This document shows positions 9,871 to 53,428 of a stretch of DNA of 64,000 nucleotides, piece by piece. Below the pieces are notes generated by a model that saw nothing but the letters and a program-made list of their open reading frames with translations, searched no databases and was not told where the DNA came from. Source of the stretch: an uncultured Planctomycetales bacterium (lineage in GTDB: Bacteria > Omnitrophota > Gorgyraeia > Gygaellales > Profunditerraquicolaceae); contig CAZRVK010000001.1 of assembly GCA_964603585.1 (NCBI GenBank), forward strand, positions 438,541 through 502,540, read 5' to 3'. Position 1 is the stretch's first letter, and each line of letters starts with the position of its first letter. The position numbers and the translations under genes are program-made.

Positions 9871-10115
9871 ATCTTTACCTCATTCACAGAAATACCCAGT
9901 TTCTTTATTTTAGCGCGCAAAGTGTTCCGGTTAATACCCAATAACCTGGCAGCCTTGATCTGATTGCCAAAAGTTATTGCTAATGTATTTTTGATCAATG
10001 ATTTATCCAGCGCATCCAGCATAATATGGTATATTTTGCCTTCCTGCTGTTTAAGAAAAAACCTGTCCAGCTCTGCAAGCGCCTTTTCTATTTCCTTTGC
10101 CTTTTCATCATTCAT
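9867..10115 (-). CDS. Fis-family helix-turn-helix protein (stand-alone)
   Basis: 82 aa. C-terminus AARLLGINRNTLRAKIKKLGI is a Fis-type HTH. Overlaps the gltB start by 4 bp. Confidence 0.6.
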   Translation of the reverse strand: MNDEKAKEIEKALAELDRFFLKQQEGKIYHIMLDALDKSLIKNTLAITFGNQIKAARLLGINRNTLRAKIKKLGISVNEVKI

Positions 10116-10195
10116 TTTTTGTCTAAAAATTAATCACCCGTGTTTAACAAAAAAACTTTACTTGGGGTGCTGATCTCATAAGAACTTATCGCGCC

Positions 10196-12391: not shown

Positions 12392-12421
12392 ATAATCCTC
12401 CTCAAAAGTAAAAATAAAATG

Positions 12422-12763
12422 TTATCCTATTGCTACCGGGCCGCGTTCTTCAGTACGTATACGCACGCATTCCAGAAGGTCTAAAACAAAGATCTTGCCA
12501 TCTCCGGTCTCTTGGGTCTTGGCCCCACTCACAACCGCTCGAATCGTCGGCTCTAAAAAACTGTCATTCACTGCGATCTCCAGCCTAATCTTGCGTAAAA
12601 GGTTACCCGTCTCTTTCGCCCCGCGATAGATCTCGGTTACCCCCATCTGCCGGCCATGCCCCAGCACCTCACTCACAGTGATAAGATTCACCTCTGCTTT
12701 ATATAATTCTTCTTTTACCGATTCTAATTTATCCGGTTGAATAATCGCTATAACTAATTTCAT
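12422..12763 (-). CDS. glnK: P-II nitrogen regulatory protein
   Basis: 113 aa. MKLVIAIIQPDKLESVKEEL and a T-loop region GHGRQMG. Lies directly downstream of amt. Confidence 0.85.
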   Translation of the reverse strand: MKLVIAIIQPDKLESVKEELYKAEVNLITVSEVLGHGRQMGVTEIYRGAKETGNLLRKIRLEIAVNDSFLEPTIRAVVSGAKTQETGDGKIFVLDLLECVRIRTEERGPVAIG

Positions 12764-12859
12764 TGAACACCTCCGCTTTTTATCTAATTAAATCATTTAA
12801 ACCAGCCGGAATCAGCAGAAATAACCCAGGATCACCCAAAGAATGTATAGCCTGCCGTA

Positions 12860-14089
12860 TTATTCCAAAACAGTGTATGCCCTTTCGCGATGCTGGGTAA
12901 GGTCCAAACCCATTAACTCGGACTTTTTATCTACCCTGACACCAATAAATAAATCAACTATCTTATATATCACGATCGTGATCACGCTCGTATAAACAAT
13001 GGTTATCCCTACCGCAGCTAACTGCACTAATAATTGTTTTGGATTGCCGAAAAACAGACCGTCCGCACCAGCCGCATTTACTGTTTTGGAGGCAAATAAC
13101 CCGGTTGCGATTGCACCCCAAATCCCGCCAATACAATGGACGCCAAAAGCATCAAGAGAATCATCGTATCCGAATTTAGGCTTAATTACTGTAACCGCAA
13201 TAAAACAAAAAACACTGACCAGCAAACCAATAATGACAGCCGGGACCACACTGACAAAACCTGCGGCAGGAGTGATCGCAACCAAACCGGCAACTGCGCC
13301 TGAACATAAACCGAATATCGTAGGCTTGCCATTATGATACCATTCAATCAATGCCCAGCTTAACCCGGCAGATGCTGCCGCGGTATTAGTAACTACAAAA
13401 GCGTTGACCGCCAACCCGTTTGCCGCAAGCGCACTGCCGGCATTGAAACCAAACCAGCCGAACCACAATAAACCTGTACCCAGGACTACGAAAGGCATAT
13501 TATGCGGAGTAGGCACATTCTTTTCTAAATTAGTCCGTTTGCCTAAAACAACTGCCGTTATAAGTGCGGCGATCCCGGCATTAATATGCACGACTGTGCC
13601 TCCGGCAAAATCTAAAGCCCCCCAATTACGCAGGAACCCTCCGATTGCCCATACCCAATGACAAAGCGGGGCATAAACAAAAGTTGCCCAAAGTAAAGTA
13701 AAAACAAGAAACGCCGAGAATTTCATCCGTTCGGCAAAAGCTCCAATGATCAAGGCCGGGGTGATGATCGCAAACATACATTGAAAGATCATGAACGCCT
13801 GATGCGGAATAGTTCCGGCATAATCCGGGTACGGCTCTAAACCTACCCCGGATAAACCTGCCCATGAAAACCCTCCCCAAAACCCTTTTCCCGGGGCAAA
13901 AGACAGGCTATATCCGATCAAAACCCAATGAATACTTAAGATACACATTACGATAAAACACTGCATCAAAACACTAAGGACGTTTTTTCTCCTGACCATA
14001 CCCCCATAAAAAAAAGCCAAAGCCGGGGTCATAAGCAGAACCAAAGCCGATGAAATTAAGACCCACGCCGTATCCCCTGAATTTATCAT
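12860..14089 (-). CDS. amt: ammonium transporter
   Basis: 409 aa multi-TM protein with Amt/MEP signatures (DFAGGTVVHINAG, GAFAERMKF). Confidence 0.9.
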   Translation of the reverse strand: MINSGDTAWVLISSALVLLMTPALAFFYGGMVRRKNVLSVLMQCFIVMCILSIHWVLIGYSLSFAPGKGFWGGFSWAGLSGVGLEPYPDYAGTIPHQAFMIFQCMFAIITPALIIGAFAERMKFSAFLVFTLLWATFVYAPLCHWVWAIGGFLRNWGALDFAGGTVVHINAGIAALITAVVLGKRTNLEKNVPTPHNMPFVVLGTGLLWFGWFGFNAGSALAANGLAVNAFVVTNTAAASAGLSWALIEWYHNGKPTIFGLCSGAVAGLVAITPAAGFVSVVPAVIIGLLVSVFCFIAVTVIKPKFGYDDSLDAFGVHCIGGIWGAIATGLFASKTVNAAGADGLFFGNPKQLLVQLAAVGITIVYTSVITIVIYKIVDLFIGVRVDKKSELMGLDLTQHRERAYTVLE

Positions 14090-14252: not shown

Positions 14253-14285
14253 AAAAAAAGAAGCCCCAAAACTATTTGGGGCTTC
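14253..14285 (-). terminator. intrinsic terminator 1 (for the Zn-ribbon gene and/or an amt leader attenuator)
   Basis: On the minus strand, GAAGCCCCAAAUAGUUUUGGGGCUUC is followed by UUUUUUU. Confidence 0.6.
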
Positions 14286-14314
14286 TTTGCCTCTTTGACA
14301 TCGCTGTCAAAGTG

Positions 14315-14342
14315 AGTATATCATTTTCTTTTTTCTTGTCAA
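14315..14342 (-). promoter_or_regulatory. sigma70-like promoter upstream of the amt leader
   Basis: On the minus strand, TTGACA, a 16-nt spacer, then TATACT. It is followed by the palindrome CTTTGACAgcgaTGTCAAAG. Confidence 0.4.
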
Positions 14343-14376
14343 GTATTATTTTTCAGCAGACTCGCTTAAAACATTC

Positions 14377-14580
14377 TTAACGTCCTTCGTTCTTACGCTT
14401 CGAGTAACAATCCTTGCAATATATCGGACGGTCTTCTCTGGGTTTAAACGGGACCTCGCATTCTTTTTTGCACTCCGAACAAACTGCCTTGTGCATTTCT
14501 CTTGGCCCGCCGAATCCACCACCCTGGTATCCCATTGTTTCCTCCTTCGCCTTAGTTAACCCCAATACTGTCTTCATCAT
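14377..14580 (-). CDS. CxxC-x17-CxxC zinc-ribbon protein
   Basis: 67 aa. CSECKKECEVPFKPREDRPIYCKDCYSKRK matches the VPFKP..DRP.YC..C family signature. Confidence 0.5.
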   Translation of the reverse strand: MMKTVLGLTKAKEETMGYQGGGFGGPREMHKAVCSECKKECEVPFKPREDRPIYCKDCYSKRKNEGR

Positions 14581-14654
14581 GGGGGTATTCCTATTAAAAG
14601 GTTCGACCTTCAGCTGTGATTATAGGTCTTTTAAGAAAGAATGCAAGCCTTTCT

Positions 14655-14846
14655 TTATTCTCGAATATCCTGCCCAGAGGAACACCCTTCAGGCCCAATA
14701 TCAGCATCCAGCGTTTTTTTCTCTATTTTCTTCTGTTTCTTTTCCTCGGCTTTTTTCTTACGCGCCAATTCTTTCTGGTACTTCTTAAATGAATAATTAT
14801 CTCTATTCACAATACTCCCCCTTTTGTTAAGTTTTAAACAGTCCAT
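14655..14846 (-). CDS. small lysine-rich basic protein, unknown function
   Basis: 63-aa ORF with a K/E-rich coiled segment and no recognisable motif. Confidence 0.3.
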   Translation of the reverse strand: MDCLKLNKRGSIVNRDNYSFKKYQKELARKKKAEEKKQKKIEKKTLDADIGPEGCSSGQDIRE

Positions 14847-16325: not shown

Positions 16326-16597
16326 TTGACGATAATTAGTGACGTATAGGTTTAATACCGGCCTTACCCCGGTAATGGCAAGGATTTAATTGTACTCCCC
16401 TCTATGCTGACTGTCTATATATATTTAGGATAAAATCAGCCTCAAAGATCATTATTTTAGGGTTGTATCTTGCTTAACTTATTTAATTACAGATACTTAA
16501 GAATAGCAACTTGATCGTCCAATAAAAACCATACATTCTGGCTTACTTGAAATCGATAACTTAGTGTGCTATATTTATATAGGAAATAGAGCTTACT

Positions 16598-16678
16598 GAT
16601 AAAGGCAAACTAGCAGCAATGCTGGGACGCAAAGCTTCCGGCCCAAGGTCTTGGGCAGCGGGGTTACCAAAGAAGCAA
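16598..16678 (+). ncRNA. c-di-GMP-I (GEMM) riboswitch
   Basis: AAAGGCAAAC, then a P2 hairpin AGCA-GCAA-UGCU with a GNRA loop, then GGGACGCAAAGCUUCCGGCC...GGCAGCGGGGUUACCAAAG. This is a near-consensus match to the Vc2-type aptamer. Confidence 0.72.
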
Positions 16679-16762: not shown

Positions 16763-17059
16763 ATGGCTAAGAAAATAAGAGTTTTTACCTTAATTCTGGG
16801 AGCTATATTCCTGCTTACCTACCAATACGCTTGGGCAGGAGACAGCTACTCCATAAAAGTTTCCTGTGTAATACCGGCGATACCCGGATTTAACGCCCCA
16901 ACCATCATTGAGAAAACAGCCGTTAAACCTAAAGCGGAAGAACCTGTATATAAGGAATCTAATAATAAAGGACTGATCCAGAAGGAAACAAAAAAAGAAA
17001 TTATCTCAAGAGGACAGGAACCAACTTTAATAGCCTTACAAACAGTATATGTAAAATAA
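16763..17059 (+). CDS. small secreted protein (signal peptide), unknown function
   Basis: 98 aa. N-terminal hydrophobic signal LILGAIFLLTYQYAWAG. The only plus-strand gene in the area and the riboswitch target. Confidence 0.45.
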   Translation: MAKKIRVFTLILGAIFLLTYQYAWAGDSYSIKVSCVIPAIPGFNAPTIIEKTAVKPKAEEPVYKESNNKGLIQKETKKEIISRGQEPTLIALQTVYVK

Positions 17060-26072: not shown

Positions 26073-26783
26073 TCATACTTGCAAACTATCCCCTTCTTTT
26101 ATTCGCATAAATCCCTGTCCAAATAATTTACGCATTGCCTCTGTCGCCCGTTCACCAGTACAATGCATCGGACCAATCTTTCGGATGCCAAGCTTCTGGA
26201 TCTCCTTAATAACACTCATATTAATTTCGTCAGCGTTATCTTTTAAATGAAAACCGCCAATAAGCGAATAAACGCTTGTTTGAAGATTCTCTTTAGTTTG
26301 CCTTACGATATTTACTACTCCCGGGTGTGCACAGCCACAGATTACCGCCAGGCCATAAGTTGTCTTTATTACGACAGACTGCTCATAAATCTTTCTGCCT
26401 TCTGATTCTCCGTAAAGCTGTCCTGTAGAATAGATACTGTCTTTAATCTGCATCATCCCTTCTACTTCGATAAGCTTAACCCCAGTTGAGACAATTTTGT
26501 CTTTTATTCCCTGCTTAAATCCATGGCAAACGTATACCGTAATATATTCCCGATTATCTATCAGGCTCCACAAACCTGCGATATGATCCCAGTCATCGTG
26601 TGATAAAATAATGTGCTTGATTTTTGCGGTATTGATATTAAACTTTTGAATATTATTGAAAAACACACCCGGATCGCCAAAGGCATCAAAAATCAGGTCA
26701 TCTCCAATGAGAAACGAAACACCCCACCTGCGGATAGACCTTTCAAACTTGCTTGAACCTGTAGCGATAACTTTTATTTGCAC
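26073..26783 (-). CDS. MBL-fold metallo-hydrolase
   Basis: HxHxDH-type motif (ILSHDDWDHIAGL) and downstream His/Asp ligands. Confidence 0.7.
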   Translation of the reverse strand: MQIKVIATGSSKFERSIRRWGVSFLIGDDLIFDAFGDPGVFFNNIQKFNINTAKIKHIILSHDDWDHIAGLWSLIDNREYITVYVCHGFKQGIKDKIVSTGVKLIEVEGMMQIKDSIYSTGQLYGESEGRKIYEQSVVIKTTYGLAVICGCAHPGVVNIVRQTKENLQTSVYSLIGGFHLKDNADEINMSVIKEIQKLGIRKIGPMHCTGERATEAMRKLFGQGFMRIKEGDSLQV

Positions 26784-27608
26784 TTAATCCCTCTGAAACT
26801 TCTTTATCTTCTCCACTATTACCATAAACGCCTCTGCGGATTTTGATTTTTCCTGAAAGGAAACAAATGGAGTCCCTTTATCAGCAAAATCGACAAATTC
26901 CGGTTGAAATGGTATACTTCCTAAAAACGGGACCTTCAACTCTTCTGCCGCCTTTTTGCCTCCGCCTTTCTTGAAAATATCTGTCTGGCTATGGCAATGC
27001 GGGCAAATAAACCCGCTCATATTCTCGATTATGCCAACTACCGGTATTTTTATTTCTTTAGCGAACAAAACGCTTTTACGCGCATCAAGTATAGCCACAT
27101 CCTGTGGAGTAGTCACAATAATGATCCCGCTGACACTGGGAATCAATTGGCATACGCTTAAAGGTTCATCGCCTGTTCCTGGAGGAGAATCAACAACAAG
27201 ATAATCCAACCTGCCCCAATTCACATCGCTTAAAAACTGACGAATAACTGCGGTTTTAGCTGGCCCGCGCCAAATTATCGGTTGATCCGGGCTGTACCCA
27301 GAAAGGGCGATACTTACTGCCTTAAGGTTCTTGCTGACTAAAACCGGGTCTATCCCGGATTCAAAAGCAGAAACCGATTGCTTCTCGATACCTAACATTT
27401 TTGCGATATTAGGCCCATGGAGATCAATATCCAAGATCCCGACCGAATTACCGGCGAGTGATAAAGCATACGCTAAATTCACAGCCACCGTAGTCTTACC
27501 TACCCCGCCTTTACCGCTCATAACAATAAAAGAATGTTTTATTAACGACATTTTTTCATTGAATTGCTTCTGTTTCTCGATTAAATCCTGTTCATCCATT
27601 TGAGCCAT
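26784..27608 (-). CDS. apbC: Mrp/NBP35 family Fe-S cluster carrier ATPase
   Basis: Deviant Walker A (SGKGGVGKTT) and a C-terminal CPHC motif. Confidence 0.85.
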   Translation of the reverse strand: MAQMDEQDLIEKQKQFNEKMSLIKHSFIVMSGKGGVGKTTVAVNLAYALSLAGNSVGILDIDLHGPNIAKMLGIEKQSVSAFESGIDPVLVSKNLKAVSIALSGYSPDQPIIWRGPAKTAVIRQFLSDVNWGRLDYLVVDSPPGTGDEPLSVCQLIPSVSGIIIVTTPQDVAILDARKSVLFAKEIKIPVVGIIENMSGFICPHCHSQTDIFKKGGGKKAAEELKVPFLGSIPFQPEFVDFADKGTPFVSFQEKSKSAEAFMVIVEKIKKFQRD

Positions 27609-27622
27609 AAGAACACCCCTTT

Positions 27623-28021
27623 TTATTTCTTAAGTAAATGATCCGCTATCGCCCGATAAAGCGTGCTTACTGCAAGTATGGAACAATGCAAATGATCCTC
27701 TGGCAAACCTTTTAAATTCCTTATTACATCCCCGGCCGAAACCAAAAGGGCGTCTTTAATGGTTTTTCCTTCTACCAACTTTGCCGTCATCGCCGCAGAA
27801 GCCCGTGTCGGGTAACAACCATCAGTATAGTATTTGATACCTGTGATCTTATCATTCTCAATCACCAGATAAAACTCCATTGAATCCCCGCAAGGCCCTT
27901 TTAAATACGAAGAACTTACAGGATCATTCATCCTGCCTAAATACCTGGGGTCATTGATCAGCTCAACTATATCTAATTGATACTCCGTAAGGCTGCCTTT
28001 ATCATCATGTTTCATGCTCAA
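27623..28021 (-). CDS. IscU/NifU N-terminal-like Fe-S scaffold protein
   Basis: GPCGDSMEF...DGCYPTRAS...HCSILAV gives the three Cys ligands of U-type scaffolds. Confidence 0.7.
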   Translation of the reverse strand: MSMKHDDKGSLTEYQLDIVELINDPRYLGRMNDPVSSSYLKGPCGDSMEFYLVIENDKITGIKYYTDGCYPTRASAAMTAKLVEGKTIKDALLVSAGDVIRNLKGLPEDHLHCSILAVSTLYRAIADHLLKK

Positions 28022-28104
28022 CCTCCTGGCATATTAAGAGCTTGCTCAAACAAAACTTTTACTGAATAAAGGAGAGGAAATACCTTAAAACATGTATGTC
28101 CCGC

Positions 28105-28977
28105 TCAACAATATTCACCATGAATTGATCTTCTTAAGATCTCCCAGACCTTTTTGATCTCATCGCCGGCCGCGCAACGGGCATATTCAACGATGGGTTT
28201 CCCCTCAACCAAAGCCTTAACCACTGCTTCATCAAACGCGATCTTTCCAATAACCGGAATGCTCTGTCGACGGCAGAATTCTTCGATCTTTTCAGTAGTA
28301 GTTAAATTTAAATCATATTTATTCACAACCAGCCTGACCGGGATATTGAAATGTCTTGCAACTTCTATAACCCTTTCGGCATCATGCAGGCCTGAAAGCG
28401 TAGGTTCAGTTACGATCAAAGCGCAGTCAACCCCTGACAAAGAAGCAATCACCGGGCATCCTATACCAGGAGGGCCGTCAATGATCACGCAATCAAGTTC
28501 TTGTTTTTCTGCTAATTCTTTAGCAATCTGCCGTATCTTTGCAACTAGCTTGCCGGAATTATCCTCGGCAATCCCTAACTTTGCATGCACAAAATGGCCG
28601 TATTTAGTATCGGAAACAAACCACTCACCGGCCACGTTCTCTTCCATTTGAACTGCCCCACAGGGGCATAGATAGCTGCAAAGAGCACATCCTTGGCAGG
28701 AAAAACGCTCAATCGTATAATCGGCTTTTATTGCCTCGAACCTGCATGCAGATAGGCATTTCCCGCATTTTTTACAAAGTTTCTTATCAATAACCGCGGT
28801 ATGTCCGCTTAGAAATTCATAGCGCTCTTTAATTACGGGATGCAACAGTAAATGCAGATCTGCCGCATCTACATCGCAGTCCACCATAACCTTATTCTTG
28901 GCCAAAGCGGCAAACGAAGCTGTAACAACTGTCTTACCTGTCCCACCTTTACCGCTAATAACTACGATTTGCTTCAT
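28105..28977 (-). CDS. MinD/ParA-superfamily P-loop ATPase with inserted 4Fe-4S ferredoxin domain (COG1149)
   Basis: SGKGGTGKT Walker A and two CxxCxxC(x)C ferredoxin motifs (CKKCGKCLSAC, CQGCALCSYLCPCG). Confidence 0.75.
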   Translation of the reverse strand: MKQIVVISGKGGTGKTVVTASFAALAKNKVMVDCDVDAADLHLLLHPVIKERYEFLSGHTAVIDKKLCKKCGKCLSACRFEAIKADYTIERFSCQGCALCSYLCPCGAVQMEENVAGEWFVSDTKYGHFVHAKLGIAEDNSGKLVAKIRQIAKELAEKQELDCVIIDGPPGIGCPVIASLSGVDCALIVTEPTLSGLHDAERVIEVARHFNIPVRLVVNKYDLNLTTTEKIEEFCRRQSIPVIGKIAFDEAVVKALVEGKPIVEYARCAAGDEIKKVWEILRRSIHGEYC

Positions 28978-29824
28978 TTTTTATCCTGCAAATATTTAAA
29001 AACAATTCCATGAACTTATCTTTATAAGAAACATCATTTTCCACGATAGGCACCCCCTGGGAATAACTAAGCGCTATTTCCCTGCTGAAAGGTATTTTCA
29101 TTAAAACAGGTATATTCTCAAGAGAACAATAATCCTCTGCTTTCTTATCACCGATATCCGAGCGATTAATAACCACTCCAAAAGGGATCCCGATTTTACG
29201 TAATACATCAACGGCCAGGATCAAATCGTTTAATCCAAAAGGAGTCGGTTCTGTAACTAACACGCAAAAATCACTTCCCTTAACTGAAGCAATTACCGGG
29301 CATGACGTTCCCGGAGGGGCATCAACAATCACTATTCTTGTTGAATTGATATACTCCTTTACCTGTCGAATAAGAGGAGGCGACATCGCCTCCCCGATAT
29401 TAAGCCGGCCATGGACAAACTGCATATCGTTATTATCGCCAATTTCGATCACACCGATCTCTTTATTGACTTCTCTTATCGCGCCTTGAGGGCAAAACAT
29501 GCTGCATGCCCCGCATCCATGGCACAAATGCGGGAAGATCAAAACATTGCCCTTTTTATCTGCCGACCCCGGTAATACCGCGATAGCGTGATACGCGCAA
29601 ACCTGGCGGCACTTACCGCAATAAGTGCATTTCAACTCATCCACCTCCGGAACCAGAACACATGCATTCAATTCGTCTTTTATACACGGTTTAATAAACA
29701 AGTGTGCATTTGGCTCTTCGACATCACAATCAAGAAGCTGGACATTATTAAGGGAAAGTGCTAAATTAACCGCGACTGTAGTCTTTCCGGTGCCGCCTTT
29801 TCCGCTGGCTACTGAAATAATCAT
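28955..29824 (-). CDS. MinD/ParA-superfamily P-loop ATPase with inserted 4Fe-4S ferredoxin domain (COG1149), paralog
   Basis: SGKGGTGKTT plus CTYCGKCRQVC and CHGCGACSMFCPQG. Overlaps the previous gene by 23 bp. Confidence 0.75.
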   Translation of the reverse strand: MIISVASGKGGTGKTTVAVNLALSLNNVQLLDCDVEEPNAHLFIKPCIKDELNACVLVPEVDELKCTYCGKCRQVCAYHAIAVLPGSADKKGNVLIFPHLCHGCGACSMFCPQGAIREVNKEIGVIEIGDNNDMQFVHGRLNIGEAMSPPLIRQVKEYINSTRIVIVDAPPGTSCPVIASVKGSDFCVLVTEPTPFGLNDLILAVDVLRKIGIPFGVVINRSDIGDKKAEDYCSLENIPVLMKIPFSREIALSYSQGVPIVENDVSYKDKFMELFLNICRIKNEANRSY

Positions 29825-29825
29825 G

Positions 29826-30452
29826 CTAATTCCTGTCTGCCGGCAGGAAGCAATGGTATGCGATTAATACCTCTTGGAATTTACTGCTGGCCTTATCGGT
29901 CTTAAACCCCTTACTGTTTAAATATTGTTCTATATCAAATAACGTGGTTTCACTAACTTCATGCTTATTTCCTTCGCTGGCATGGACCTTATCCATAAGG
30001 GCGAATCCCTCTTTAGTAAAATCGCTTAAAACGAGCTTTCCTGGACAAGAAAGCACGCGCAAAAGCTCATCAATCACCTTATAGGGATTAGTTAAATGAT
30101 GCAGGGTATTGACGGAAAAAACAACATCAAAGCTTTTATCCTTAAAATTTAATGTTTCTGCGTTTTCAATCCTAAAATCAACCTGCCGGTCAAAGCCGAA
30201 ATAACGCAGAGTTAATTTCGCAAAGGCTTGTTCTGTCTCCGAAATATCGAAGGTAGTAAAGACACACCCCGCTTTTGCAAGCTCAAGCGCAAAATGCCCC
30301 TTACCCGTGCCAGCCTCAAGGATACCGCCGCTAATAGGCTGGGCCTTCTCTAAAATGAAAGCCCGCTCCTTATCAACATCATATCCAAAACTGGCATATA
30401 ACGCTTTACGCTCTAAATAACGTTTGTAGTTTTCTAAAAGCTCTTTTTCCAA
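29826..30452 (-). CDS. class I SAM-dependent methyltransferase
   Basis: Motif I ILEAGTGKGHFALELAK and Rossmann MTase layout. Confidence 0.7.
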   Translation of the reverse strand: MEKELLENYKRYLERKALYASFGYDVDKERAFILEKAQPISGGILEAGTGKGHFALELAKAGCVFTTFDISETEQAFAKLTLRYFGFDRQVDFRIENAETLNFKDKSFDVVFSVNTLHHLTNPYKVIDELLRVLSCPGKLVLSDFTKEGFALMDKVHASEGNKHEVSETTLFDIEQYLNSKGFKTDKASSKFQEVLIAYHCFLPADRN

Positions 30453-30457
30453 TTATA

Positions 30458-30943
30458 CTACTTTCCTGACATGTCATCTAAAATTGATTCCAGGTCCTCT
30501 TCGTGCTCGATTTCATCTGCCATGATCTCTAAAGCGAGATGATAGGTAACGACATCTTTTTCTTTTACCTCTGCAGAAAGCTTATTATAAACCTCAATCG
30601 CACACTGTTCGCCTTTAATATTCTGCTTTAAAATCGCCTTCACCGAAGGATCTTCCGGGGCATCATAACCGCAGTTAGCCTGTTTATACCAATCTTCCGG
30701 CTTTAAAATAGGCGTACCACCCAGCTGTATGATCCTCTCGACAAGCATACCCGCATGTTTCAGCTCTTCACTGGCATGCTGTTCTAATTCAGCGACTACT
30801 GCTCCACGCATCTGTCCACGGGCAACTTTTGCCCCTACCCAATATTGATAATAAGCAAGCCACTCATCGGCAAAGGCCTTATTCAATAATGCGACTATTT
30901 TATTCATATCGGAACCAACCAGCTCTCTTGCTTTTGTCCCCAT
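30458..30943 (-). CDS. ferritin-like diiron protein (bacterioferritin/Dps-like)
   Basis: Four-helix bundle pattern with E..H pairs (EQHASEELKHAG, ADEIEHEED). Confidence 0.6.
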   Translation of the reverse strand: MGTKARELVGSDMNKIVALLNKAFADEWLAYYQYWVGAKVARGQMRGAVVAELEQHASEELKHAGMLVERIIQLGGTPILKPEDWYKQANCGYDAPEDPSVKAILKQNIKGEQCAIEVYNKLSAEVKEKDVVTYHLALEIMADEIEHEEDLESILDDMSGK

Positions 30944-30954
30944 ATTTTCCTCCC

Positions 30955-31323
30955 TTATTTAGCAATCCCGAATTTAGAACTTACACTTGGCCCCTGGGTA
31001 ATTTTCAGTTTTCCGCTTTTATATTCTTCAATCGCCTCTTTGACCGAGCCGGACATATTGGTATATATTTCAATCTTTGCCTTGTTTAAGGTTTCAAACG
31101 CATTCGGCCCAACATTTCCAGTCAAAACAGCCGTAACCCCTTTAGAACTAACTAACTGGGCTGACTGGATCCCCGCACCTCCCTGAAATTGAGCATTAAT
31201 GTTTCCCTGGACCTCGAATTCCCCGGAATCAGTATCAAAGAAAATAAAGTTCTGGCACCTGCCAAAACGAGGGTCGACCTTTGAATCTAAAGTTTTTCCT
31301 TCTGCAGTAATGCATATTTTCAT
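30955..31323 (-). CDS. NifX/NifB-C-terminal-like (dinitrogenase FeMo-cofactor-binding domain) protein
   Basis: MKICITAEG...FGRCQNFIFFD...AVLTGNVGPNAFE is a PF02579-like fold. Confidence 0.75.
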   Translation of the reverse strand: MKICITAEGKTLDSKVDPRFGRCQNFIFFDTDSGEFEVQGNINAQFQGGAGIQSAQLVSSKGVTAVLTGNVGPNAFETLNKAKIEIYTNMSGSVKEAIEEYKSGKLKITQGPSVSSKFGIAK

Positions 31324-31401
31324 AGAAAACCTTCCTTTTTCCCCTGGTGAACCTTAAAGAACTTATATCCCAAAAGGTCACTTCGATATATCCCGGTTAC
31401 T

Positions 31402-31779
31402 TTAATGGCAGCTGGAATCACTGCCATGCTCTTTACAAGCATCAAGCCCACCCAAGGTATTACTCATAAAATCATCAAGCGCTTTCTGCACTTTACCAGA
31501 ATAACCAAAGACCTCAACTCCTGCCTGTGCAAACTTCTGTTGGGCACCCATCCCCATGCCACCGGCAATAACGTGGGTGATTTTGTACTTTAGGAGCTCA
31601 TCGACCGCAACACATCCTCCTCCGCCATGTACCGCGGTATTAGGCACAATCCGCGAACCGGTTATTTTCTTCTTATCCTTATCGATATCAGCTAAAAAAA
31701 AGAACTTACACTGTCCAAAATGCGCACAAACATTGCCATGGACTCCATTTTCATCTTCCAAAACAACCCCAACTCTCAT
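31402..31779 (-). CDS. NifX-like (dinitrogenase FeMo-cofactor-binding domain) protein, paralog
   Basis: MRVGVVLED...HFGQCKFFFLADI...HVIAGGMGMGAQQKF. Confidence 0.75.
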   Translation of the reverse strand: MRVGVVLEDENGVHGNVCAHFGQCKFFFLADIDKDKKKITGSRIVPNTAVHGGGGCVAVDELLKYKITHVIAGGMGMGAQQKFAQAGVEVFGYSGKVQKALDDFMSNTLGGLDACKEHGSDSSCH

Positions 31780-31827
31780 CTTTAATACCTCCCTTTAGAT
31801 AAAAAACTACTTTTTCCATCCCTATTA

Positions 31828-32082
31828 TCACTCTTGCTTATAATCTACACGGCCAAAACCCCCGAACGCCTGCATTCCATTTTTTGCTCTCATCCAGCCG
31901 GGAAGCCCTGTAGCATAAAAACAATTACGCCTGCCTCTACCGCCTCCTCCTGCCCCGGAAATACCTCGCATGGACTGCCTTTTAGCCCCATCAACAGGCA
32001 TAACACAATAACCCCTTCCGCCTCCTGTCATCGATCCCTGTCCTCTCGGCCCTGTTCCGTCAAAACCTGGCATCTCTATCAC
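31828..32082 (-). CDS. DUF5320 glycine-rich small protein
   Basis: MPGFDGTGPRGQGSMTGGGRGYC matches the conserved DUF5320 N-terminus. Confidence 0.6.
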   Translation of the reverse strand: MIEMPGFDGTGPRGQGSMTGGGRGYCVMPVDGAKRQSMRGISGAGGGGRGRRNCFYATGLPGWMRAKNGMQAFGGFGRVDYKQE

Positions 32083-32094
32083 CTACCTTCCTTT

Positions 32095-32113
32095 AATGAA
32101 AATCATTTTCATT
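32095..32113 (-). promoter_or_regulatory. candidate Fur-family operator (perfect 9-1-9 palindrome)
   Basis: AATGAAAATcATTTTCATT is exactly self-complementary. It lies between the Fur-family gene stop and the DUF5320 start. Confidence 0.5.
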
Positions 32114-32135: not shown

Positions 32136-32609
32136 TCATTTCATTTCCCTGCATTTCTCGCATACACCGTAAAACTGTATAAGATGATTGGTGATCTTAA
32201 ACTTATATTTTTGAGCCAATCCTCTCTCTGTTTGATTAAGCAGCTCAACCTCTTCATCAATAAAGTCAGTATAGTCGATCACCATATTGCATTGTGTACA
32301 AACCAAATGATGGTGATGATGCGCCCCTTTAGGCCCTTCGGCAAATTCATACCTGGACCTGCCATCGCCGAAATCAAGCTTATATACCATACCCAGATTT
32401 GATAATACATCCAGCGTCCGATAAACAGTAGTTAATCCTATGCTGGGATATTTAGAATGTACCTTTATGTATATATCCTCGGCACTCAAGTGTCCTTCGG
32501 CTTTGGATAAGATATCGAGAATTGCTTCACGGCCTAACGTAAGCCTGTACCCGCAACCCCGGAACTTACCATGCCACCATCCCTCTTTCTGGCAATTACC
32601 TCTTTGCAT
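32136..32609 (-). CDS. Fur-family metalloregulator (Fur/Zur/PerR)
   Basis: Winged-helix N-domain. HHHHLVCTQCNMVIDY gives the metal-binding His cluster plus CxxC. The start is taken at MQRGN; the ORF track extends to 32636. Confidence 0.8.
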   Translation of the reverse strand: MQRGNCQKEGWWHGKFRGCGYRLTLGREAILDILSKAEGHLSAEDIYIKVHSKYPSIGLTTVYRTLDVLSNLGMVYKLDFGDGRSRYEFAEGPKGAHHHHHLVCTQCNMVIDYTDFIDEEVELLNQTERGLAQKYKFKITNHLIQFYGVCEKCREMK

Positions 32610-32638: not shown

Positions 32639-32664
32639 TTAATGAAAATGGTTTCCATTACTAA
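32639..32664 (-). promoter_or_regulatory. second candidate Fur-family box upstream of the regulator gene
   Basis: TTAATGAAAATGGTTTCCATTACTAA shares the AATGAAAAT half-site and contains the inverted repeat AATGG-ttt-CCATT. Confidence 0.35.
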
Positions 32665-32704
32665 TATATACAAGAAAACCGCATTTGTCAAGAAAAACTT
32701 TATT

Positions 32705-36413: not shown

Positions 36414-36755
36414 CTATACAGCGATATCGCCTTTTTCTCCGGTGCGGATCCTTATAGCATCATCTACAGGATAAACAAATATCTTGCCATCGCCAATTTC
36501 ACCGGTCCTGGCGGTTTTAGCTATAGAATTTACGACTTTATCGAAATCACTGTCCTTAACAATTATTTCGATTTTTACTTTCGGCAAAAAATTAACTTTG
36601 TATTCCCGGCCGCGGAACTGCTCAACCAAGCCTTTTTGCCGGCCATGCCCTTCAATATGCGTGATCATCATCCCGGGGCAGCAATGCAATGTTTCTAAAG
36701 CCTCGGTAACTCCTTCTAACCTTTCTACCCGAATAACTGCCTCTATTTTCTTCAT
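36414..36755 (-). CDS. glnK: P-II nitrogen regulatory protein (second copy)
   Basis: 113-aa P-II fold (MKKIEAVIRVERLEGV...GDGKIFVYPV). Downstream of amt2. Confidence 0.85.
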   Translation of the reverse strand: MKKIEAVIRVERLEGVTEALETLHCCPGMMITHIEGHGRQKGLVEQFRGREYKVNFLPKVKIEIIVKDSDFDKVVNSIAKTARTGEIGDGKIFVYPVDDAIRIRTGEKGDIAV

Positions 36756-36811
36756 TTTGCTCCTTCCTCCCCTCTGCCTGAAAGCGAAACAAGAAAAATC
36801 AGGTTAATGGG

Positions 36812-38179
36812 TCAATTTTGATTCGTTGTATAAAAATTCGGATAAGCCGGAGTTCCATGTTCAATAACATCCAGCCCTTTTAATTCTTCTTCCGGCGAAA
36901 CTCTGACACCAAAACATTTATCCATCAGCTTAAAGGTAATTAATCCCAGACTAAAAGCCCAAGCCACACAAACGGCCGCTCCAATCACTTGAGCGATTAA
37001 CTGCCCCCAACCTCCCCCGTAGAATAACCCTTTAATTAATGGCGCAGTAGTTGTCCCCAAGCCATATGTTCCGTCAGCAAAAAGCCCCACACTAATAAGG
37101 CCCCAGACACCATTTACAGCATGCACACTGACCGCACCAACCGGATCATCTACCTTCATTGCTTCCCAAAAATATACGCTTACAACTACCAAAACACCGG
37201 CTATCGCACCAATAACCACAGCTGCCCACGCCTCTACCCAGGCACAAGGCGCGGTAACGGCGACCAATCCTGCCAGACAACCGTTTAGCATCATCCCCAG
37301 ATCCCACTTCTTTGTCTTCATAAATACCAAAAGAATAGCAACCGCCGCTCCTGCTGCTGCTGCCAGATTAGTATTCACCGCAATAACCGCAATCCTTAAT
37401 TGATGCGCAGAAAATGTAGAGCCTGGATTAAAACCAAACCATCCAAACCATAATATGAATGTACCCAGTGCCGCAAGGGTTATACTATGCCCGGGGATAG
37501 CCTTTGATTTTCCGTCTTTGCCTATTTTCCCGAACCTCGGACCAAGGACAATAGCACCGGCTAAACCAACAAAACCCCCTATAGTATGCACGACTCCGGA
37601 TCCGGCAAAATCAACATGTCCTGCTCCAAAAGGAAGTTTAGAAAGCCATCCTCCGCCCCAAACCCAGTGACCAAATATAGGATAGATGATCGCCGAAACT
37701 GCAAGGCTATATAAAAAATACGCCTTGAATTTTAATCTTTCTGCAACTGCTCCGGAGACAATCGTTGCCGCGGTTCCGGCAAAAACCATCTGCCAAAAGA
37801 ACACGAGATACTTTCCTACATCATAATTTGCCCCGTGTAAGAACCAACCCGATGTGCCGATTATCCCTTTGTAGTCATTTCCCATCATAAAAGCAAAACC
37901 AACAGCCATAAAAACAAGTGAAGCGACAACGAAATCAATCGTGTTTTTAGCCATAAGGTTAGTCGCATTTTTTGCCCGGCAAAACCCGGCCTCAACCATC
38001 GCAAACCCTGCCTGCATAAAAAAAACCAGGAATCCACAAACCAACACCCATACATAATCAACCGGTGCCTGTGGATTTTGCGCCAGCGTTTCGGCGCCTC
38101 CAGGATCCTGGGCAAAGCAGACCCCGCTAACCCAGGCAATCACTGCAGTAAATAAGAATATGAATATTCTTAGAAACAT
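36812..38179 (-). CDS. amt: ammonium transporter (second copy, with signal peptide)
   Basis: 455 aa. Amt signatures (DFAGSGVVH, GAVAERLKF). Confidence 0.9.
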   Translation of the reverse strand: MFLRIFIFLFTAVIAWVSGVCFAQDPGGAETLAQNPQAPVDYVWVLVCGFLVFFMQAGFAMVEAGFCRAKNATNLMAKNTIDFVVASLVFMAVGFAFMMGNDYKGIIGTSGWFLHGANYDVGKYLVFFWQMVFAGTAATIVSGAVAERLKFKAYFLYSLAVSAIIYPIFGHWVWGGGWLSKLPFGAGHVDFAGSGVVHTIGGFVGLAGAIVLGPRFGKIGKDGKSKAIPGHSITLAALGTFILWFGWFGFNPGSTFSAHQLRIAVIAVNTNLAAAAGAAVAILLVFMKTKKWDLGMMLNGCLAGLVAVTAPCAWVEAWAAVVIGAIAGVLVVVSVYFWEAMKVDDPVGAVSVHAVNGVWGLISVGLFADGTYGLGTTTAPLIKGLFYGGGWGQLIAQVIGAAVCVAWAFSLGLITFKLMDKCFGVRVSPEEELKGLDVIEHGTPAYPNFYTTNQN

Positions 38180-38199
38180 GGTTATTCCTCCTTTCTAAT

Positions 38200-38967
38200 T
38201 TAGAATGCATATACTAATGTACCCCCGCCGTAAAAACGCGATTTTTGATTGGCATGCGACTCGCTGGCTAAATCGCCAAAGGGAATCGAATAATTCAGGT
38301 TAGGGGAAAACTTCAGGTTTTTAGTTAACGGCATAGTCAACCCCACCTTTAAAGCAACATCTCCGCCATCTCCGTCGATGAATTGATTATGATTAAAACC
38401 TACATGGCCCGATAAATCCAAACTAAAATCATAACCTTTCAGCACAAACGGCAAGCTATGAGATGCATTGACTACAGTGTAATTGCCTAAACCTCCTCCA
38501 CTGGAAGGATTGCCATAGTCACGGTAAAAATATACCGAAGGGCTCAAGAACAAATTAGGGAAAGAAACCCCAGCATAGAATTCACGGCTGAATTTATTGG
38601 TGCCGGTGAAATCATAATACGTATGCCCAAAAGATATGCTGAAGTTCTTAAACCCGTAAGTATAATCAATGATATAGTCAAACTCATCCGAGTTTAAATC
38701 ATCGCTATTTTGCAAATCCTCATTGACCCACATACCCAGTTTCAGCTTGCCAAACTTTGTTTCTGGAGTTGATACATAAACTTCCGGCTGTAGTACAGCA
38801 TCCCTGTCCATAATGAACCCTCTCCAGATATACTGGCTAAACACTGATAAACCACCGCTTACTTCGACTTTCAGGTCAGACAACAAACCGGTTTTTTCTT
38901 CCTGTCCAAATACATTTGTCACCACCACCAAAAGAAACATAAATACTCCTATTGCTCTCTTCCACAT
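38200..38967 (-). CDS. TorF/Gcw_chp-family putative outer-membrane porin
   Basis: Signal peptide. FSQYIWRGFIMDRDAVLQPEVYVS matches the Gcw_chp N-terminal pattern. C-terminal aromatic residue. Lies 20 bp upstream of amt2. Confidence 0.6.
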   Translation of the reverse strand: MWKRAIGVFMFLLVVVTNVFGQEEKTGLLSDLKVEVSGGLSVFSQYIWRGFIMDRDAVLQPEVYVSTPETKFGKLKLGMWVNEDLQNSDDLNSDEFDYIIDYTYGFKNFSISFGHTYYDFTGTNKFSREFYAGVSFPNLFLSPSVYFYRDYGNPSSGGGLGNYTVVNASHSLPFVLKGYDFSLDLSGHVGFNHNQFIDGDGGDVALKVGLTMPLTKNLKFSPNLNYSIPFGDLASESHANQKSRFYGGGTLVYAF

Positions 38968-39267
38968 GCTTCCCTCCTTATTTAAAACCGTTTTATACGT
39001 AGTTTTTCCTCATAAATATTGTCAACCTGATACCGCATCCATCTTGGAGCGCCCCTGATCCAACGAGTACTCTTTTGTACTCAAAAACCCAAGGAGAGTG
39101 CCTCCTGTTCTTTTGAGGCACCTATGCCCCAAACACACTACTACAAACAAAAACGCCCTTTCGGCACTCAACATTAGCGCCTTAAGGACGTCTACGCCCT
39201 GCCACTTGCCACTTCTCTGCAGCAAATGAATAAACCAATTTTTAATCGGATATTACATTTTCTCCGG

Positions 39268-40494
39268 TTACTTCTTCATATTACTGGCTAAAATAATTGC
39301 CTCGGCAATCTCACGCATGGGCTTACAGGTATCCATGCTTTTACGGTTGATCAAGCGATAAGCATCATCCTCATTTATCTTTAACTCCTTCATTAAGAAA
39401 CCCTTGGCCCGCTCAACCATCTTTCGCGTCTCTAACGCCTCTTTAACCCGTAATGTCTCTTCCATAAGTTTTGTATTCTCTACCGCCACAGCAGCCTGAT
39501 TTGCCACCATTTGCAATATATCGATTTCCTCCTGCGCGAAAGAATGAAGTTCTTTTGTGTATATATTAATAATACCTATTGCTTTATCTTTTACGACCAT
39601 CGGAACCGATAACATCGACGTAAGATTTTCTTTAATTGCCAAATCACGGTAATGGTATCTTTTTTCATCACGCACATCATAGATTACGATAGGTTTCCTG
39701 GTTTTAACCACCTCTCCGCTTAAGCTGGCATTAACTTTGATATTGGACTTCTTTTTATACTCCTCACTCAAGCTCTGGGTAGCTTTAATAACCAGTTCAT
39801 CCCCTTTTTGGTCCAAAAGCATAATAGAACATATCTTCGAATCAAGCATTTTAGCGGTAACAACCACAATAAGGTTTAAAATCTCATCCAGATACACCTG
39901 CGAAGTAATGGACTGGCTGACCTTGATCAAGCTATCAAACTGCAAAGCCTTCCTTCTTTTGTCCTCATACAACCGGGCGTTTACAATCACCCCTCCGGTT
40001 TGCTTGGCTATAATCGAAATTAAACTAACAGTATTGCCGGCATATTCATGCGGTTTTTTATGCTGGATATTGATAACCCCAATACAATCACCTTTGCAAA
40101 CAATCGGGACAGAAAGAAATGCTTCATATTTATCCTCCAGCAACACATCCAGGTTCTTGAAACGCGGGTCCAGATATGCCTTGTTATTGATAACAACCGG
40201 CTTATTTTCCTTAGCTACCCAGCCGGTAATCCCCTCTCCTATTTTAAGATTTACCCTGCCTAATTCTTTTTGATGCGGCATCTTTGAAGCCATAAGGACT
40301 AAATGCCGCTTTTTCTCATCAAATAAATAGATAAAAACAGAATCCGCATGAGTCATATCATTAACGACCTGAACCATCTCCCCAAGGATCAAGTTTAAAT
40401 CCAATGCGGAATTAGTAATTTCAACAATCCTTCTTAATATCTTGACTTCCTGCAGCGAAGTAATATTCAACGTCTTTCCTTTTGTCTTTTCCAT
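39268..40494 (-). CDS. tandem GAF domain + ANTAR RNA-binding antitermination regulator
   Basis: Two GAF folds. C-terminus RKMVERAKGFLMKELKINEDDAYRLINRKSMDTCKPMREIAEAII is an ANTAR domain. Confidence 0.75.
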   Translation of the reverse strand: MEKTKGKTLNITSLQEVKILRRIVEITNSALDLNLILGEMVQVVNDMTHADSVFIYLFDEKKRHLVLMASKMPHQKELGRVNLKIGEGITGWVAKENKPVVINNKAYLDPRFKNLDVLLEDKYEAFLSVPIVCKGDCIGVINIQHKKPHEYAGNTVSLISIIAKQTGGVIVNARLYEDKRRKALQFDSLIKVSQSITSQVYLDEILNLIVVVTAKMLDSKICSIMLLDQKGDELVIKATQSLSEEYKKKSNIKVNASLSGEVVKTRKPIVIYDVRDEKRYHYRDLAIKENLTSMLSVPMVVKDKAIGIINIYTKELHSFAQEEIDILQMVANQAAVAVENTKLMEETLRVKEALETRKMVERAKGFLMKELKINEDDAYRLINRKSMDTCKPMREIAEAIILASNMKK

Positions 40495-52462: not shown

Positions 52463-52497
52463 AAAAAAAACCATCCTGCAGCAAAACTGCAAGATGG
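52463..52497 (-). terminator. intrinsic terminator after the crcB-DUF190 operon
   Basis: On the minus strand, CCAUCUUGCAGuuuuGCUGCAGGAUGG is followed by UUUUUUUU. Confidence 0.6.
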
Positions 52498-52697
52498 CGG
52501 CCCGACCACCTTAACTTTCCTACCTCCAGGAATACCTGCGTATCCCCAGACCACTTATCTGTCGCAACTTAATATACCATAATCGAAGGAAAACGCAAAG
52601 TAATAGTGCTGACTCGCATACGTAGCCCAAAAGTTTCTTGCATGATCATATAAAATCTATAAGATTCCGGCCTTATCAGCCATTTGAATTAAAATAA

Positions 52698-53041: not shown

Positions 53042-53428
53042 TTATTTAAATAAATTCAAAAACATTCTTGAGGCGGCATATCCGGCAAATACAGCACCAA
53101 TACTCAAAACCACTGAAAGAGCCGCGTTAGCGAAGGCAATACGATATTCCCCGTCTCGCATGAGGTTAAACGTTTCGAGACTGAAGGTAGAGAACGTCGT
53201 ATAGCCGCCTAAGATACCGATAAAAATAAAAAGCCTAATATTCGGAGAGATTTCAAACCGGTCGATAATCCCCCAGAGGAAACCGATCACTAAGGATCCC
53301 GTAACATTAACAACCAACGTACTGACAGGGAACGCCCCGTTTGCGAAACGGTAATCAAGCCCGCCCATAATATAACGCAGGATTGTTCCGATCGCGCCGC
53401 CTAATCCTAAAATAAAAAACCTCAACAT
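53042..53428 (-). CDS. crcB: fluoride ion channel CrcB/Fluc
   Basis: MLRFFILGLGGAIGTILRY...GGYTTFSTFS. The start is set at MLRFF because the longer ORF-track N-terminus covers the riboswitch. Confidence 0.85.
   Translation of the reverse strand: MLRFFILGLGGAIGTILRYIMGGLDYRFANGAFPVSTLVVNVTGSLVIGFLWGIIDRFEISPNIRLFIFIGILGGYTTFSTFSLETFNLMRDGEYRIAFANAALSVVLSIGAVFAGYAASRMFLNLFK

Follow-up and report, generated by a model that had tools for sequence, protein, structure and literature searches.

We analyzed a stretch of 64,000 nucleotides (the window; positions below count from its first nucleotide) from contig CAZRVK010000001.1 of an uncultured bacterium of the Omnitrophota, in which ten minus-strand genes at positions 26073 to 32082, delimited from the open reading frame (ORF) listing and a Pfam scan, form a tightly packed operon. 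In the direction of transcription, the genes encode a DUF5320 protein, two NifX-like proteins (A and B), a Dps-like protein (DPSL), an S-adenosylmethionine (SAM)-dependent methyltransferase, two MinD-family ATPases with an inserted ferredoxin domain (copies a and b), an IscU-like scaffold, an Mrp-type carrier and a metallo-β-lactamase (MBL)-fold protein. The intergenic gaps range from −23 to 83 nt, the negative value being the 23-nt overlap between the two ATPase genes, and terminator-like matches inside the operon all fell within coding sequence, at about the number expected from shuffling. A gene for a predicted Fur-family repressor (32136 to 32609, minus strand) leads the operon, ahead of these ten. 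An initial annotation of this DNA had listed the same gene content within 26073 to 32113, which the ORF listing and Pfam confirmed; its count of eleven genes holds only if the Fur-family gene is included, since ten genes lie inside that span.

The identities of the core genes were established computationally. Both NifX-like proteins belong to PF02579. NifX-like B (30955 to 31323, minus strand; 90.2 bits) is of the orange-protein/MTH1175/TM1290 type and, in a search of the PDB, matched the solved Desulfovibrio gigas orange protein (ORP; 2WFB, E = 4 × 10−19) as well as 1RDU (E = 1.4 × 10−19) and MTH1175 (E = 5 × 10−18). NifX-like A (31402 to 31779, minus strand; 63.5 bits) was the more divergent of the two in the same search (PH0822, E = 8.7 × 10−7) and has a C-terminal cysteine, Cys115, that was kept in 89% of 64 homologues. 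Both proteins matched positions 266 to 365 of the NCBIfam model NF041136 (MrpORP), that is, its C-terminal Di-Nase part. The two ATPases, both matching Pfam CbiA/ParA and Fer4 dicluster models, are of the Orp3/Orp4 type, with an inserted 2×[4Fe-4S] ferredoxin domain (COG1149); copy a (28955 to 29824, minus strand) and copy b (28105 to 28977, minus strand) share 35% identity, and each carries two complete CX2CX2CX3C motifs. In copy a, the deviant Walker A motif GKGGxGKT, cysteines 66/69/72/76 and 101/104/107/111, and D168 were invariant in a 26-sequence alignment, and in copy b all eight ferredoxin cysteines and C174 were kept in at least 94% of 79 homologues. The Mrp/NBP35 Fe-S carrier ATPase (26784 to 27608, minus strand; PF10609, 318 bits), with its GKGGVGKT and CPHC motifs, scored 357.5 bits against NF041136 over model positions 1 to 250 of 365 (cutoff, 450 bits) and 223.7 bits against ApbC. 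The protein had previously been called ApbC; it is indeed an Mrp-type carrier, with MrpORP as the closer family, and corresponds to the P-loop half of MrpORP without the fused Di-Nase domain.

The domain content, the match of NifX-like B to 2WFB and the best score of Mrp against MrpORP identify the core as ORP-type. The ORP complex cluster was described in Desulfovibrio vulgaris in 2011 and has been studied since; there, Orp3 (DVU2103) and Orp4 (DVU2104) are paralogues with two [4Fe-4S] ferredoxin motifs each, Orp5 (DVU2105) is homologous to a small [2Fe-2S] protein, and Orp8 (DVU2108) is the orange-protein homologue (PMC6345978, PMC8359166, PMC3897727). Orp9, or MrpORP (DVU2109), is an Mrp/NBP35 protein fused to a Di-Nase PF02579 domain that binds Fe-S, and it hands Fe-S clusters to Orp proteins in vitro (PMC6345978). 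The genes form two divergent σ54 operons, orp5-orp4-orp3 and orp7-orp8-orp9, whose activator, OrpR, senses redox state through a PAS-domain Fe-S cluster and is reportedly restricted to the δ-proteobacteria (PMC8359166). The window operon shares with this system the paired MinD-type ATPases with two [4Fe-4S] motifs, the PF02579 proteins, the Mrp/NBP35 carrier, a small-protein gene 5′ of the ATPases, an occurrence in anaerobes only and a dedicated regulator, encoded nearby, for which no targets beyond these genes were detected. It differs in being one co-directional operon rather than two divergent ones, in having a predicted σ70 promoter and Fur-family repressor where Desulfovibrio has σ54, IHF and OrpR, in an Mrp that is not fused to Di-Nase, in the additional IscU, DPSL, methyltransferase and MBL genes, and in a predicted sign of regulation that is the opposite. 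An ORF and Pfam survey of the neighbourhood found no enhancer-binding protein gene adjacent to the operon. The earlier statement that no function has been assigned to this neighbourhood overlooked that it has an identity, its core being the known ORP complex cluster; the accompanying proposal, that the genes serve to assemble, store or deliver metalloclusters, was reasonable in general terms.

The ORP complex has been tentatively tied to cell division, and MrpORP localizes to the cell poles (PMC6345978, PMC3897727). Extended to the window, this original proposal would make the ATPase pair a MinD-like positioning system for cell division, with the metal proteins as helpers in cofactor maturation. 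An AlphaFold2 model of ATPase copy a (mean predicted local distance difference test score of 94.9) is compatible with such a role in that archaeal MinD was among its nearest solved folds, but the metallochaperones HypB (ATPase type), ApbC and Cfd1 were equally close; no solved structure combining a MinD ATPase with an inserted 2×[4Fe-4S] domain was found in the PDB. Moreover, no min, fts or other division gene was linked to the cluster in the window or in 90 loci, whereas linkage to the Fe-S scaffold, the carrier and Fur was steady, and we regard a division system as very unlikely. A second alternative is that the cluster might handle molybdenum, tungsten or copper thiometalates rather than Fe-S, in detoxification or trafficking, much as D. 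gigas ORP holds [S2MoS2CuS2MoS2]3−. The closeness of NifX-like B to this protein and the metal transporters near the cluster in some genomes (ZIP here, ArsP and CDF in locus L001; loci are cited by our own numbers) would suit such a role. However, the regulator and operator are of the Fur/PerR type and not of the ModE or CsoR type, both IscU and Mrp count among the Fe-S proteins, Fe-S is also what the Di-Nase domain binds in MrpORP, and ZIP is not conserved beside the cluster, all of which makes thiometalate handling an improbable function for the locus.

Next, we looked into how the operon is conserved. A profile scan with one genome per species returned 80 loci from the Omnitrophota, Chloroflexota, Desulfobacterota, Bacillota, Planctomycetota, Bathyarchaeia, methanogens and others, and their ORFs were classified with hidden Markov models (HMMs) grown from the window proteins and grouped into same-strand clusters. 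Many contigs were truncated, so that the counts are lower bounds. The ATPase pair was present in 74 of the 80 loci, at least one NifX-like gene in 70 and at least two in 58; Mrp followed with 40, DUF5320 with 38 and IscU-like with 29, and then came MBL (14), the methyltransferase (12), Fur (9) and DPSL (a single locus). The conserved set is therefore the ORP core plus IscU, and the other genes are lineage-specific additions. The initial annotation, which had treated all of the genes as one module recurring in anaerobes, was right about the recurrence, the core being present in 80 species-representative genomes of bacteria and archaea, and about the ATPases, NifX-like proteins, Mrp, DUF5320 and IscU, which are widely kept, but not about MBL, the methyltransferase, Fur and DPSL. 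Of the four families that it had proposed to follow across genomes, COG1149, PF02579 and DUF5320 do co-occur, while DUF134 falls outside this operon. The scan yielded no Desulfovibrio locus. The closest homologues of the ATPases and the regulator were almost all from Candidatus Omnitrophota (72 to 86% identity), where the order is, with small variations, Fur, DUF5320, NifX, NifX, (DPSL), methyltransferase, ATPase pair, (DUF2099), IscU, (Mrp), MBL. That iron-related genes merely came to lie behind a Fur box by chance, without forming a functional unit, might be argued from DPSL, the methyltransferase and MBL, which stand outside the widely conserved set. Yet the order is kept across the Omnitrophota at 75 to 82% protein identity, the core is kept across phyla and domains, and the genes are packed to the point of overlapping; the synteny data effectively refute this explanation, to which we give almost no credence.

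The genes that join the ORP core in this lineage include those for the scaffold, DPSL, the methyltransferase and MBL. The IscU/NifU_N-type scaffold (27623 to 28021, minus strand; PF01592, 79 bits; TIGR03419, 86 bits, under cutoff) has a complete ligand set (C44, D46, C69, H112 and C113) that was kept in 95 to 100% of homologues. Walker A motifs, every ferredoxin cysteine, the IscU ligands and the Mrp CxxC are thus all intact. The Cys/Asp/His ligands are those of the IscU scaffold in the ISC system; unlike that system, the operon is not accompanied by IscS, HscAB or Fdx, none of which was found in it or among the window ORFs of at least 110 amino acids (aa). The protein at 30458 to 30943 (minus strand; PF00210, 99.5 bits) had been described as ferritin-like, which is correct but can be narrowed to DPSL, a bacterioferritin-related diiron protein: it matched Bacteroides fragilis DPSL (2VZB, E = 2 × 10−39), with C90 and C114 aligned to cysteines of that protein, and scored 79.6 bits, under cutoff, against the NCBIfam archaeal DPS model. 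The class I SAM-dependent methyltransferase (29826 to 30452, minus strand; PF08241, 74 bits) reached no NCBIfam equivalog and keeps its position in Omnitrophota and some Planctomycetota loci. The last gene (26073 to 26783, minus strand) encodes a COG1237-type MBL-fold protein with weak Pfam matches, PDB matches to 7DCK (E = 7 × 10−33), TM1679 and 2P4Z, and conserved histidines and cysteines at H62, H67, C151, H153, H179, H207 and C208. Among the relatives, a pyridine-nucleotide-disulfide oxidoreductase lies in or after the operon in L085 (8900-10592) and L087 (10585-11934), a DsrE-like protein in L085 and L001 (11678-12300), and a rubrerythrin fragment in L001; the oxidoreductase and DsrE-like inserts give a hint, and only a hint, of a non-cysteine sulfur supply.

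The first of the ten genes after fur encodes an 81-aa DUF5320 protein (31828 to 32073, minus strand; PF17253, 35.3 bits; its true ATG is probably the one at 32073), which is a candidate Orp5 counterpart. In many loci the DUF5320 gene precedes the ATPase pair on its 5′ side, the place that orp5 has in orp5-orp4-orp3, so that the likeness to Orp5 is one of position. The family shares an N-terminal MPxxDGTGPxGxGPMTGRxxGxC motif, a middle part rich in glycine, arginine and aromatic residues and, in most cases, a coiled coil at the C terminus. The window protein (pI 10.6; 28% Gly; 12 Arg or Lys, 8 aromatic residues and 2 Cys) has the Gly/Arg/aromatic-rich composition and, as in L001, is of a short type without the coiled coil, which the Omnitrophota copy in L003 possesses; the 48-nt gap after the window gene is too small to hold a lost coiled-coil part.

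We then examined the control region. The predicted operator 1 is the perfect 9-1-9 palindrome AATGAAAATCATTTTCATT at 32095 to 32113, identical to the clade consensus and situated 22 nt past the fur stop codon and 21 nt before the DUF5320 ATG. Predicted operator 2, AATGGAAACCATTTTCATT on the coding strand (32641 to 32659), has two to three mismatches to operator 1, begins 4 nt past the −10 element of a σ70-type promoter and stands 32 nt ahead of the fur ATG, where it is predicted to serve autoregulation. This promoter, TTGACA-N17-TATATT (32663 to 32691, minus strand), matched at 11 of 12 positions and was the best in an 8.4-kb scan; a promoter of the form TTGACA-N17-TAxxxT likewise precedes fur in L001, L003, L007, L009, L010, L034 and L060. 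With a position weight matrix (PWM) built from orthologous sites, operators 1 and 2 scored 29.1 and 28.1 bits, and the next best score in the 64 kb was 9.9 bits, so that the PWM picks out these two sites only. When up to three mismatches to the palindrome were allowed, chance accounted for 0.16 expected matches, and none of the shuffles gave as many as 4. The initial annotation had reported the perfect 19-bp palindrome just upstream of the genes and had taken it for a Fur-family operator; both points were borne out, and a second copy precedes the Fur-family gene. A ZIP gene upstream was considered as a member of the operon and rejected because it is not conserved beside the cluster and lacks its own operator.

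The pairing of operator with regulator held up in computation across genomes. The promoter-operator-fur layout is kept in the Omnitrophota loci and also in others that are labelled Clostridia, WOR-3 or Eubacteriales. Operator 2 keeps its position in most of the fur-led loci that we examined, and operator 1 does so in Omnitrophota, WOR-3- and Nitrospirota-labelled loci. In a held-out test, all six loci outside the PWM set (L085 to L090) carried sites of 20 to 27 bits beside fur: in L085 to L089, a site lies 29 to 38 nt upstream of fur, an additional site follows fur by about 20 nt in L085, L087 and L090, and the upstream box of L090 is 1.5 kb off, at the head of a longer operon that contains fur. 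Across 1.16 Mb of loci, every site of at least 19.8 bits adjoined a fur gene of the type described below or, in L090, headed its operon. Besides the window, we inspected 14 distinct fur-led loci (L001/L002, L003, L007, L009, L010, L034, L060 and L085 to L090, including Ratteibacteria-, Bacillota- and Nitrospirota-labelled contigs), and in all of them fur was directly followed by ORP-type genes, namely DUF5320 and/or NifX-like genes. Weaker operator-like palindromes (14 to 17 bits) occur in ORP-type clusters of other phyla without an adjacent fur (L033:3550-3568, L035:3473-3491, L083:5914-5932 and L029:11841-11859) and may reflect a trans-encoded regulator or chance.

The regulator itself (157 aa from the ATG at 32609) has the PF01475 fold and two CxxC motifs (CTQC and CEKC). 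It belongs to a clade, whose conservation we measured over 241 sequences, that differs from other Fur homologues near ORP clusters in an N-terminal extension, MQRGNCQKEGWWHGKFRGCG, with an invariant W11-W12 pair, and in two short insertions; we refer to it as the WW clade. An OrpR-like Fe-S site formed by the N-terminal cysteines was considered and rejected, as C6 and C19 were conserved in only 39% and 73% of sequences, respectively, while W11 and W12 were invariant. L003 encodes a second Fur-family paralogue (14263-14700) without the WW extension, which is probably a Zur: it has its own upstream palindrome, TAGTAATTATTACTA, which is Zur-box-like, and another such palindrome lies upstream of a PTPS gene. 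We propose the WW clade as a candidate dedicated ORP regulator outside the δ-proteobacteria and thus as a counterpart of OrpR. A literature search found no description of Fur-type control of ORP, PF02579 or MinD-type clusters; a paper on Acidithiobacillus ferrooxidans Fur names MTH1175 only as a CDF C-terminal signature.

The signal sensed by the regulator could be iron, peroxide or both, judging from its ligands and operator. By overall similarity the protein is nearest to Bacillus-type Fur, with 138.5 bits in NCBIfam (below the equivalog cutoff of 220) compared with 90 bits for PerR, and with 119 compared with 80 bits in the PDB, where the best match was the Fur structure 9IRE (E = 1.4 × 10−33). 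Its putative metal ligands tell a different story: H40, D82, two of the histidines within H97-H101, and D112 align with His37, Asp85, His91, His93 and Asp104 of Bacillus subtilis PerR (BLASTP against a PerR sequence entered by hand). Fur proteins carry a Glu and PerR an Asp at the position of Asp104, and this residue has been proposed to decide reactivity toward H2O2 (PMC4866751). D112 aligns with the Glu of two Fur structures in the PDB alignments and was kept in at least 95% of the 241 clade members.

The regulator may accordingly be a PerR in function and the operon a peroxide or oxygen stress regulon, in which H2O2 would oxidize the histidine ligands, the repressor would leave the DNA, and DPSL would be made together with an Fe-S repair kit. 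The five PerR ligands, the conserved Asp at the discriminating position and the presence of a Dps-type protein in the operon, both here and in L003, with rubrerythrin after the operon in L001, all point in this direction. The operator points the other way. Its half-site, TGAAAAT, agrees with the B. subtilis Fur 7-1-7 box at six of seven positions and with the PerR box at five; compared by eye with the B. subtilis consensus, the core of the palindrome (TGAAAAT, the central C and ATTTTCA) agrees with the Fur box TGATAATNATTATCA at 12 of 14 positions, and the operator agrees with the PerR box TTATAATNATTATAA at 10 of 14, although PerR operators vary widely between lineages. DPSL is the sole member of a classic PerR-type target class in the operon and, with one occurrence among the 80 ORP-type clusters, falls outside the core targets. 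In addition, the evidence for the Asp rule comes solely from Bacillus proteins. We therefore see PerR function as possible but lean against it. The initial call of a Fur-type regulator was correct as to family, with the reservation that the protein may behave like PerR rather than like a plain Fur. The Fur fold, the two CxxC zinc sites, the His/Asp/His/His/Asp site of PerR, the 7-1-7-type operator, the predicted autoregulation and the Dps-type target gene are shared with the PerR-MrgA (Dps)/Fur regulons of B. subtilis, from which the window system differs in similarity and operator that lie nearer Fur, in the WW extension and two insertions, and in having the ORP cluster as its target.

Taking these results together, we think it probable that this locus represents the anaerobe-specific ORP system in an Omnitrophota version, arranged as one operon under an autoregulated Fur-type repressor and devoted to Fe-S handling. 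The ORP system that forms the core is already known; new are the gathering of this core with IscU, DPSL, methyltransferase and MBL in one operon, the apparent replacement of σ54 and OrpR by a dedicated Fur/PerR-like repressor clade with a defined predicted operator, and a link between NifX and DUF5320 through a gene fusion (see below). In such a variant, the ORP core of two Orp3/Orp4-type ATPases, two PF02579 cluster-binding proteins, DUF5320 in the Orp5 position and the Mrp/NBP35 carrier would have been merged with an IscU-type scaffold, DPSL, the SAM methyltransferase and the COG1237 MBL. A metallated Fur-family dimer would bind the two 19-bp 9-1-9 palindromes, of which operator 2 overlaps the start region of the strong predicted σ70 promoter before fur and operator 1 stands between fur and DUF5320; it is from these positions that we infer that the regulator represses. 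Once the repressor lost functional Fe2+, through iron starvation or, given the PerR-type Asp, through peroxide, the operon would be derepressed. Fe-S or metal-sulfide clusters would then be assembled, held and passed on while the Fe-S pool is under stress, by a route that may lead from the scaffold to the Mrp carrier and on to the Orp ATPases and the NifX-like holders.

The sufABCDSE operon of Escherichia coli, a stress Fe-S assembly system under the control of Fur, OxyR and IscR, offers a parallel, as it too is an Fe-S operon under a Fur-type repressor, with expression expected under iron scarcity or in the presence of oxidants. The window operon lacks homologues of SufBCD and SufS and has ORP, IscU and Mrp types instead, and the repressor here is apparently dedicated and encoded within its own operon. 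Several points weigh against the interpretation as an Fe-S-handling ORP variant. Fur-family proteins can also activate transcription, and no clear σ70 promoter was found around operator 1 at the scan threshold. The operon has no cysteine desulfurase or other sulfur donor, and the roles of the methyltransferase and MBL are left unexplained by an ORP function. The proposed orthology to Orp3, Orp4 and Orp5 is drawn from architecture, position and family models, and Mrp scored below the cutoff of the MrpORP model, which we attribute to the absence of the Di-Nase domain from the polypeptide. Finally, in Desulfovibrio the ORP system has a reported link to cell division and is turned on only when the redox potential is very low (PMC8359166), a sign of induction opposite to the one expected with a Fur/PerR repressor.

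The name NifX also raises the question of nitrogen fixation. The two window proteins share PF02579 with NifX, NafY and the NifB C-terminal domain, but sequence searches placed them with ORP, MTH1175 and TM1290. In agreement with the earlier remark that nitrogenase is absent near the locus, the window ORFs of at least 110 aa included no gene for nitrogenase or for hydrogenase maturation, and no nifHDK or nifENB linkage was seen in the 64 kb or in the annotated neighbourhoods of the relatives inspected.

A storage function was considered next. IssA of Pyrococcus furiosus (PF2025) is an anionic thioferrate store in which a PF02579 domain of the MTH1175 clade is joined to a cationic Gly/Arg/Trp tail of pI 10.7 (PMC5524996). 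Both window NifX-like proteins end at most 20 residues past the domain and have no IssA-type tail; what the window has is a separate DUF5320 gene. In L088, which is Bacillota-labelled, a 192-aa protein (8905-9483) joins a PF02579 domain of the ORP type (91.6 bits) to the Gly-rich/coiled-coil C-terminal half of DUF5320 (43.9 bits). This fusion came from precomputed Pfam annotation, and a search of the raw ORFs of 84 loci with our own HMMs returned no NifX-DUF5320 fusion. L088 also has three further DUF5320 genes, and FeoAB and a DtxR-type regulator lie just upstream. Because of this Rosetta-stone fusion and the shared chemistry, we speculate that the NifX-like and DUF5320 proteins act jointly on anionic metal-sulfide species.

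Taken further, the NifX-like and DUF5320 proteins might form a split IssA, storing a thioferrate-like or other metal-sulfide polymer from which the ferredoxin-ATPases, by reduction, would release material to IscU and Mrp. Like IssA, the operon would provide an MTH1175-clade PF02579 domain (NifX-like B is of the MTH1175/ORP type), a cationic segment rich in Gly, Arg and aromatic residues (in DUF5320, whose chemistry resembles that of the thioferrate-binding IssA tail) and a supply of iron and sulfur for [4Fe-4S] assembly; DUF5320 adjoins NifX-like genes in 38 of 80 clusters, PF02579 and PF17253 are fused in L088, and the ORP cofactor is likewise a linear anionic metal sulfide, held non-covalently (PMC6345978). 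However, the likeness of DUF5320 to the IssA tail is one of composition, which does not amount to homology, and the L088 fusion involves the Gly-rich/coiled-coil half of DUF5320, whereas the window protein consists of the N-terminal half only. The tail of IssA is on the same polypeptide, while here a fusion is seen only in L088; IssA acts alone, its particles forming without partner proteins, and it is made when iron and sulfide are abundant, which fits poorly with derepression upon loss of iron. On balance, we judge a split IssA to be rather unlikely.

Several features elsewhere in the window were recorded in passing. Over positions 1 to 64000, all ORFs of at least 110 aa with Pfam matches lie on the minus strand, an unusually long co-directional run. 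Against this background, a c-di-GMP-I-GGC riboswitch (16595-16672; 63 bits, E = 1.8 × 10−14) lies on the plus strand, followed 3′ by a plus-strand ORF (16763-17059, 98 aa) with a signal-peptide-like N terminus, whereas the other annotated window genes are all on the minus strand. A fluoride riboswitch (53448-53510, minus strand) precedes crcB (53042-53497) and a DUF190 gene, and an nhaA-I RNA match (52492-52553, minus strand; 37.3 bits against a gathering threshold of 37) lies upstream of a class A β-lactamase-family gene. An arsenic- or metal-type cluster (53548-59042) encodes an LMWPc phosphatase, ACR3/SBF, a DsbD-like protein, a methyltransferase and an ArsP_1 permease; in L001/L002, an ArsP_1 permease and a 260-aa methyltransferase lie 3′ of the ORP-like operon, with DUF134, CDF, Trx and DGC genes, while in the window they are 25 kb away. 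One nitrogen assimilation block (3855-14089) comprises the large and small subunits of GOGAT, a type III glutamine synthetase, PII and Amt, and a second one (36414-40494) has a PII-Amt pair beside a GAF-ANTAR regulator.

The orange protein was found in 2000, and proposals for the role of the ORP system range from cell division to Fe-S maturation. Outside Desulfovibrio, the ORP core is wired to an IscU scaffold and an Mrp carrier and, in several phyla, also to a putative iron- or peroxide-sensing Fur-family repressor with a recognizable operator, and this wiring steers the question of function toward Fe-S stress. The operator, the regulator, its residue D112 and the NifX-DUF5320 fusion supply experimental handles for which heterologous hosts can be used, although the Omnitrophota are uncultured. 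At its most ambitious, the picture would be one in which a hitherto unnoticed Fur/PerR-hybrid sensor clade, with its WW motif, Fur-like operator and PerR-like Asp, acts as the dedicated ORP switch outside the δ-proteobacteria and turns on a split-IssA machine, with NifX and DUF5320 holding a linear anionic iron or other metal sulfide that the Orp3/4 ATPases reduce and hand to IscU and Mrp. We hold this combination to be a long shot; if true, strict anaerobes would have in this machine an Fe-S reservoir for emergencies, and the long-missing function of the ORP system would have been supplied.

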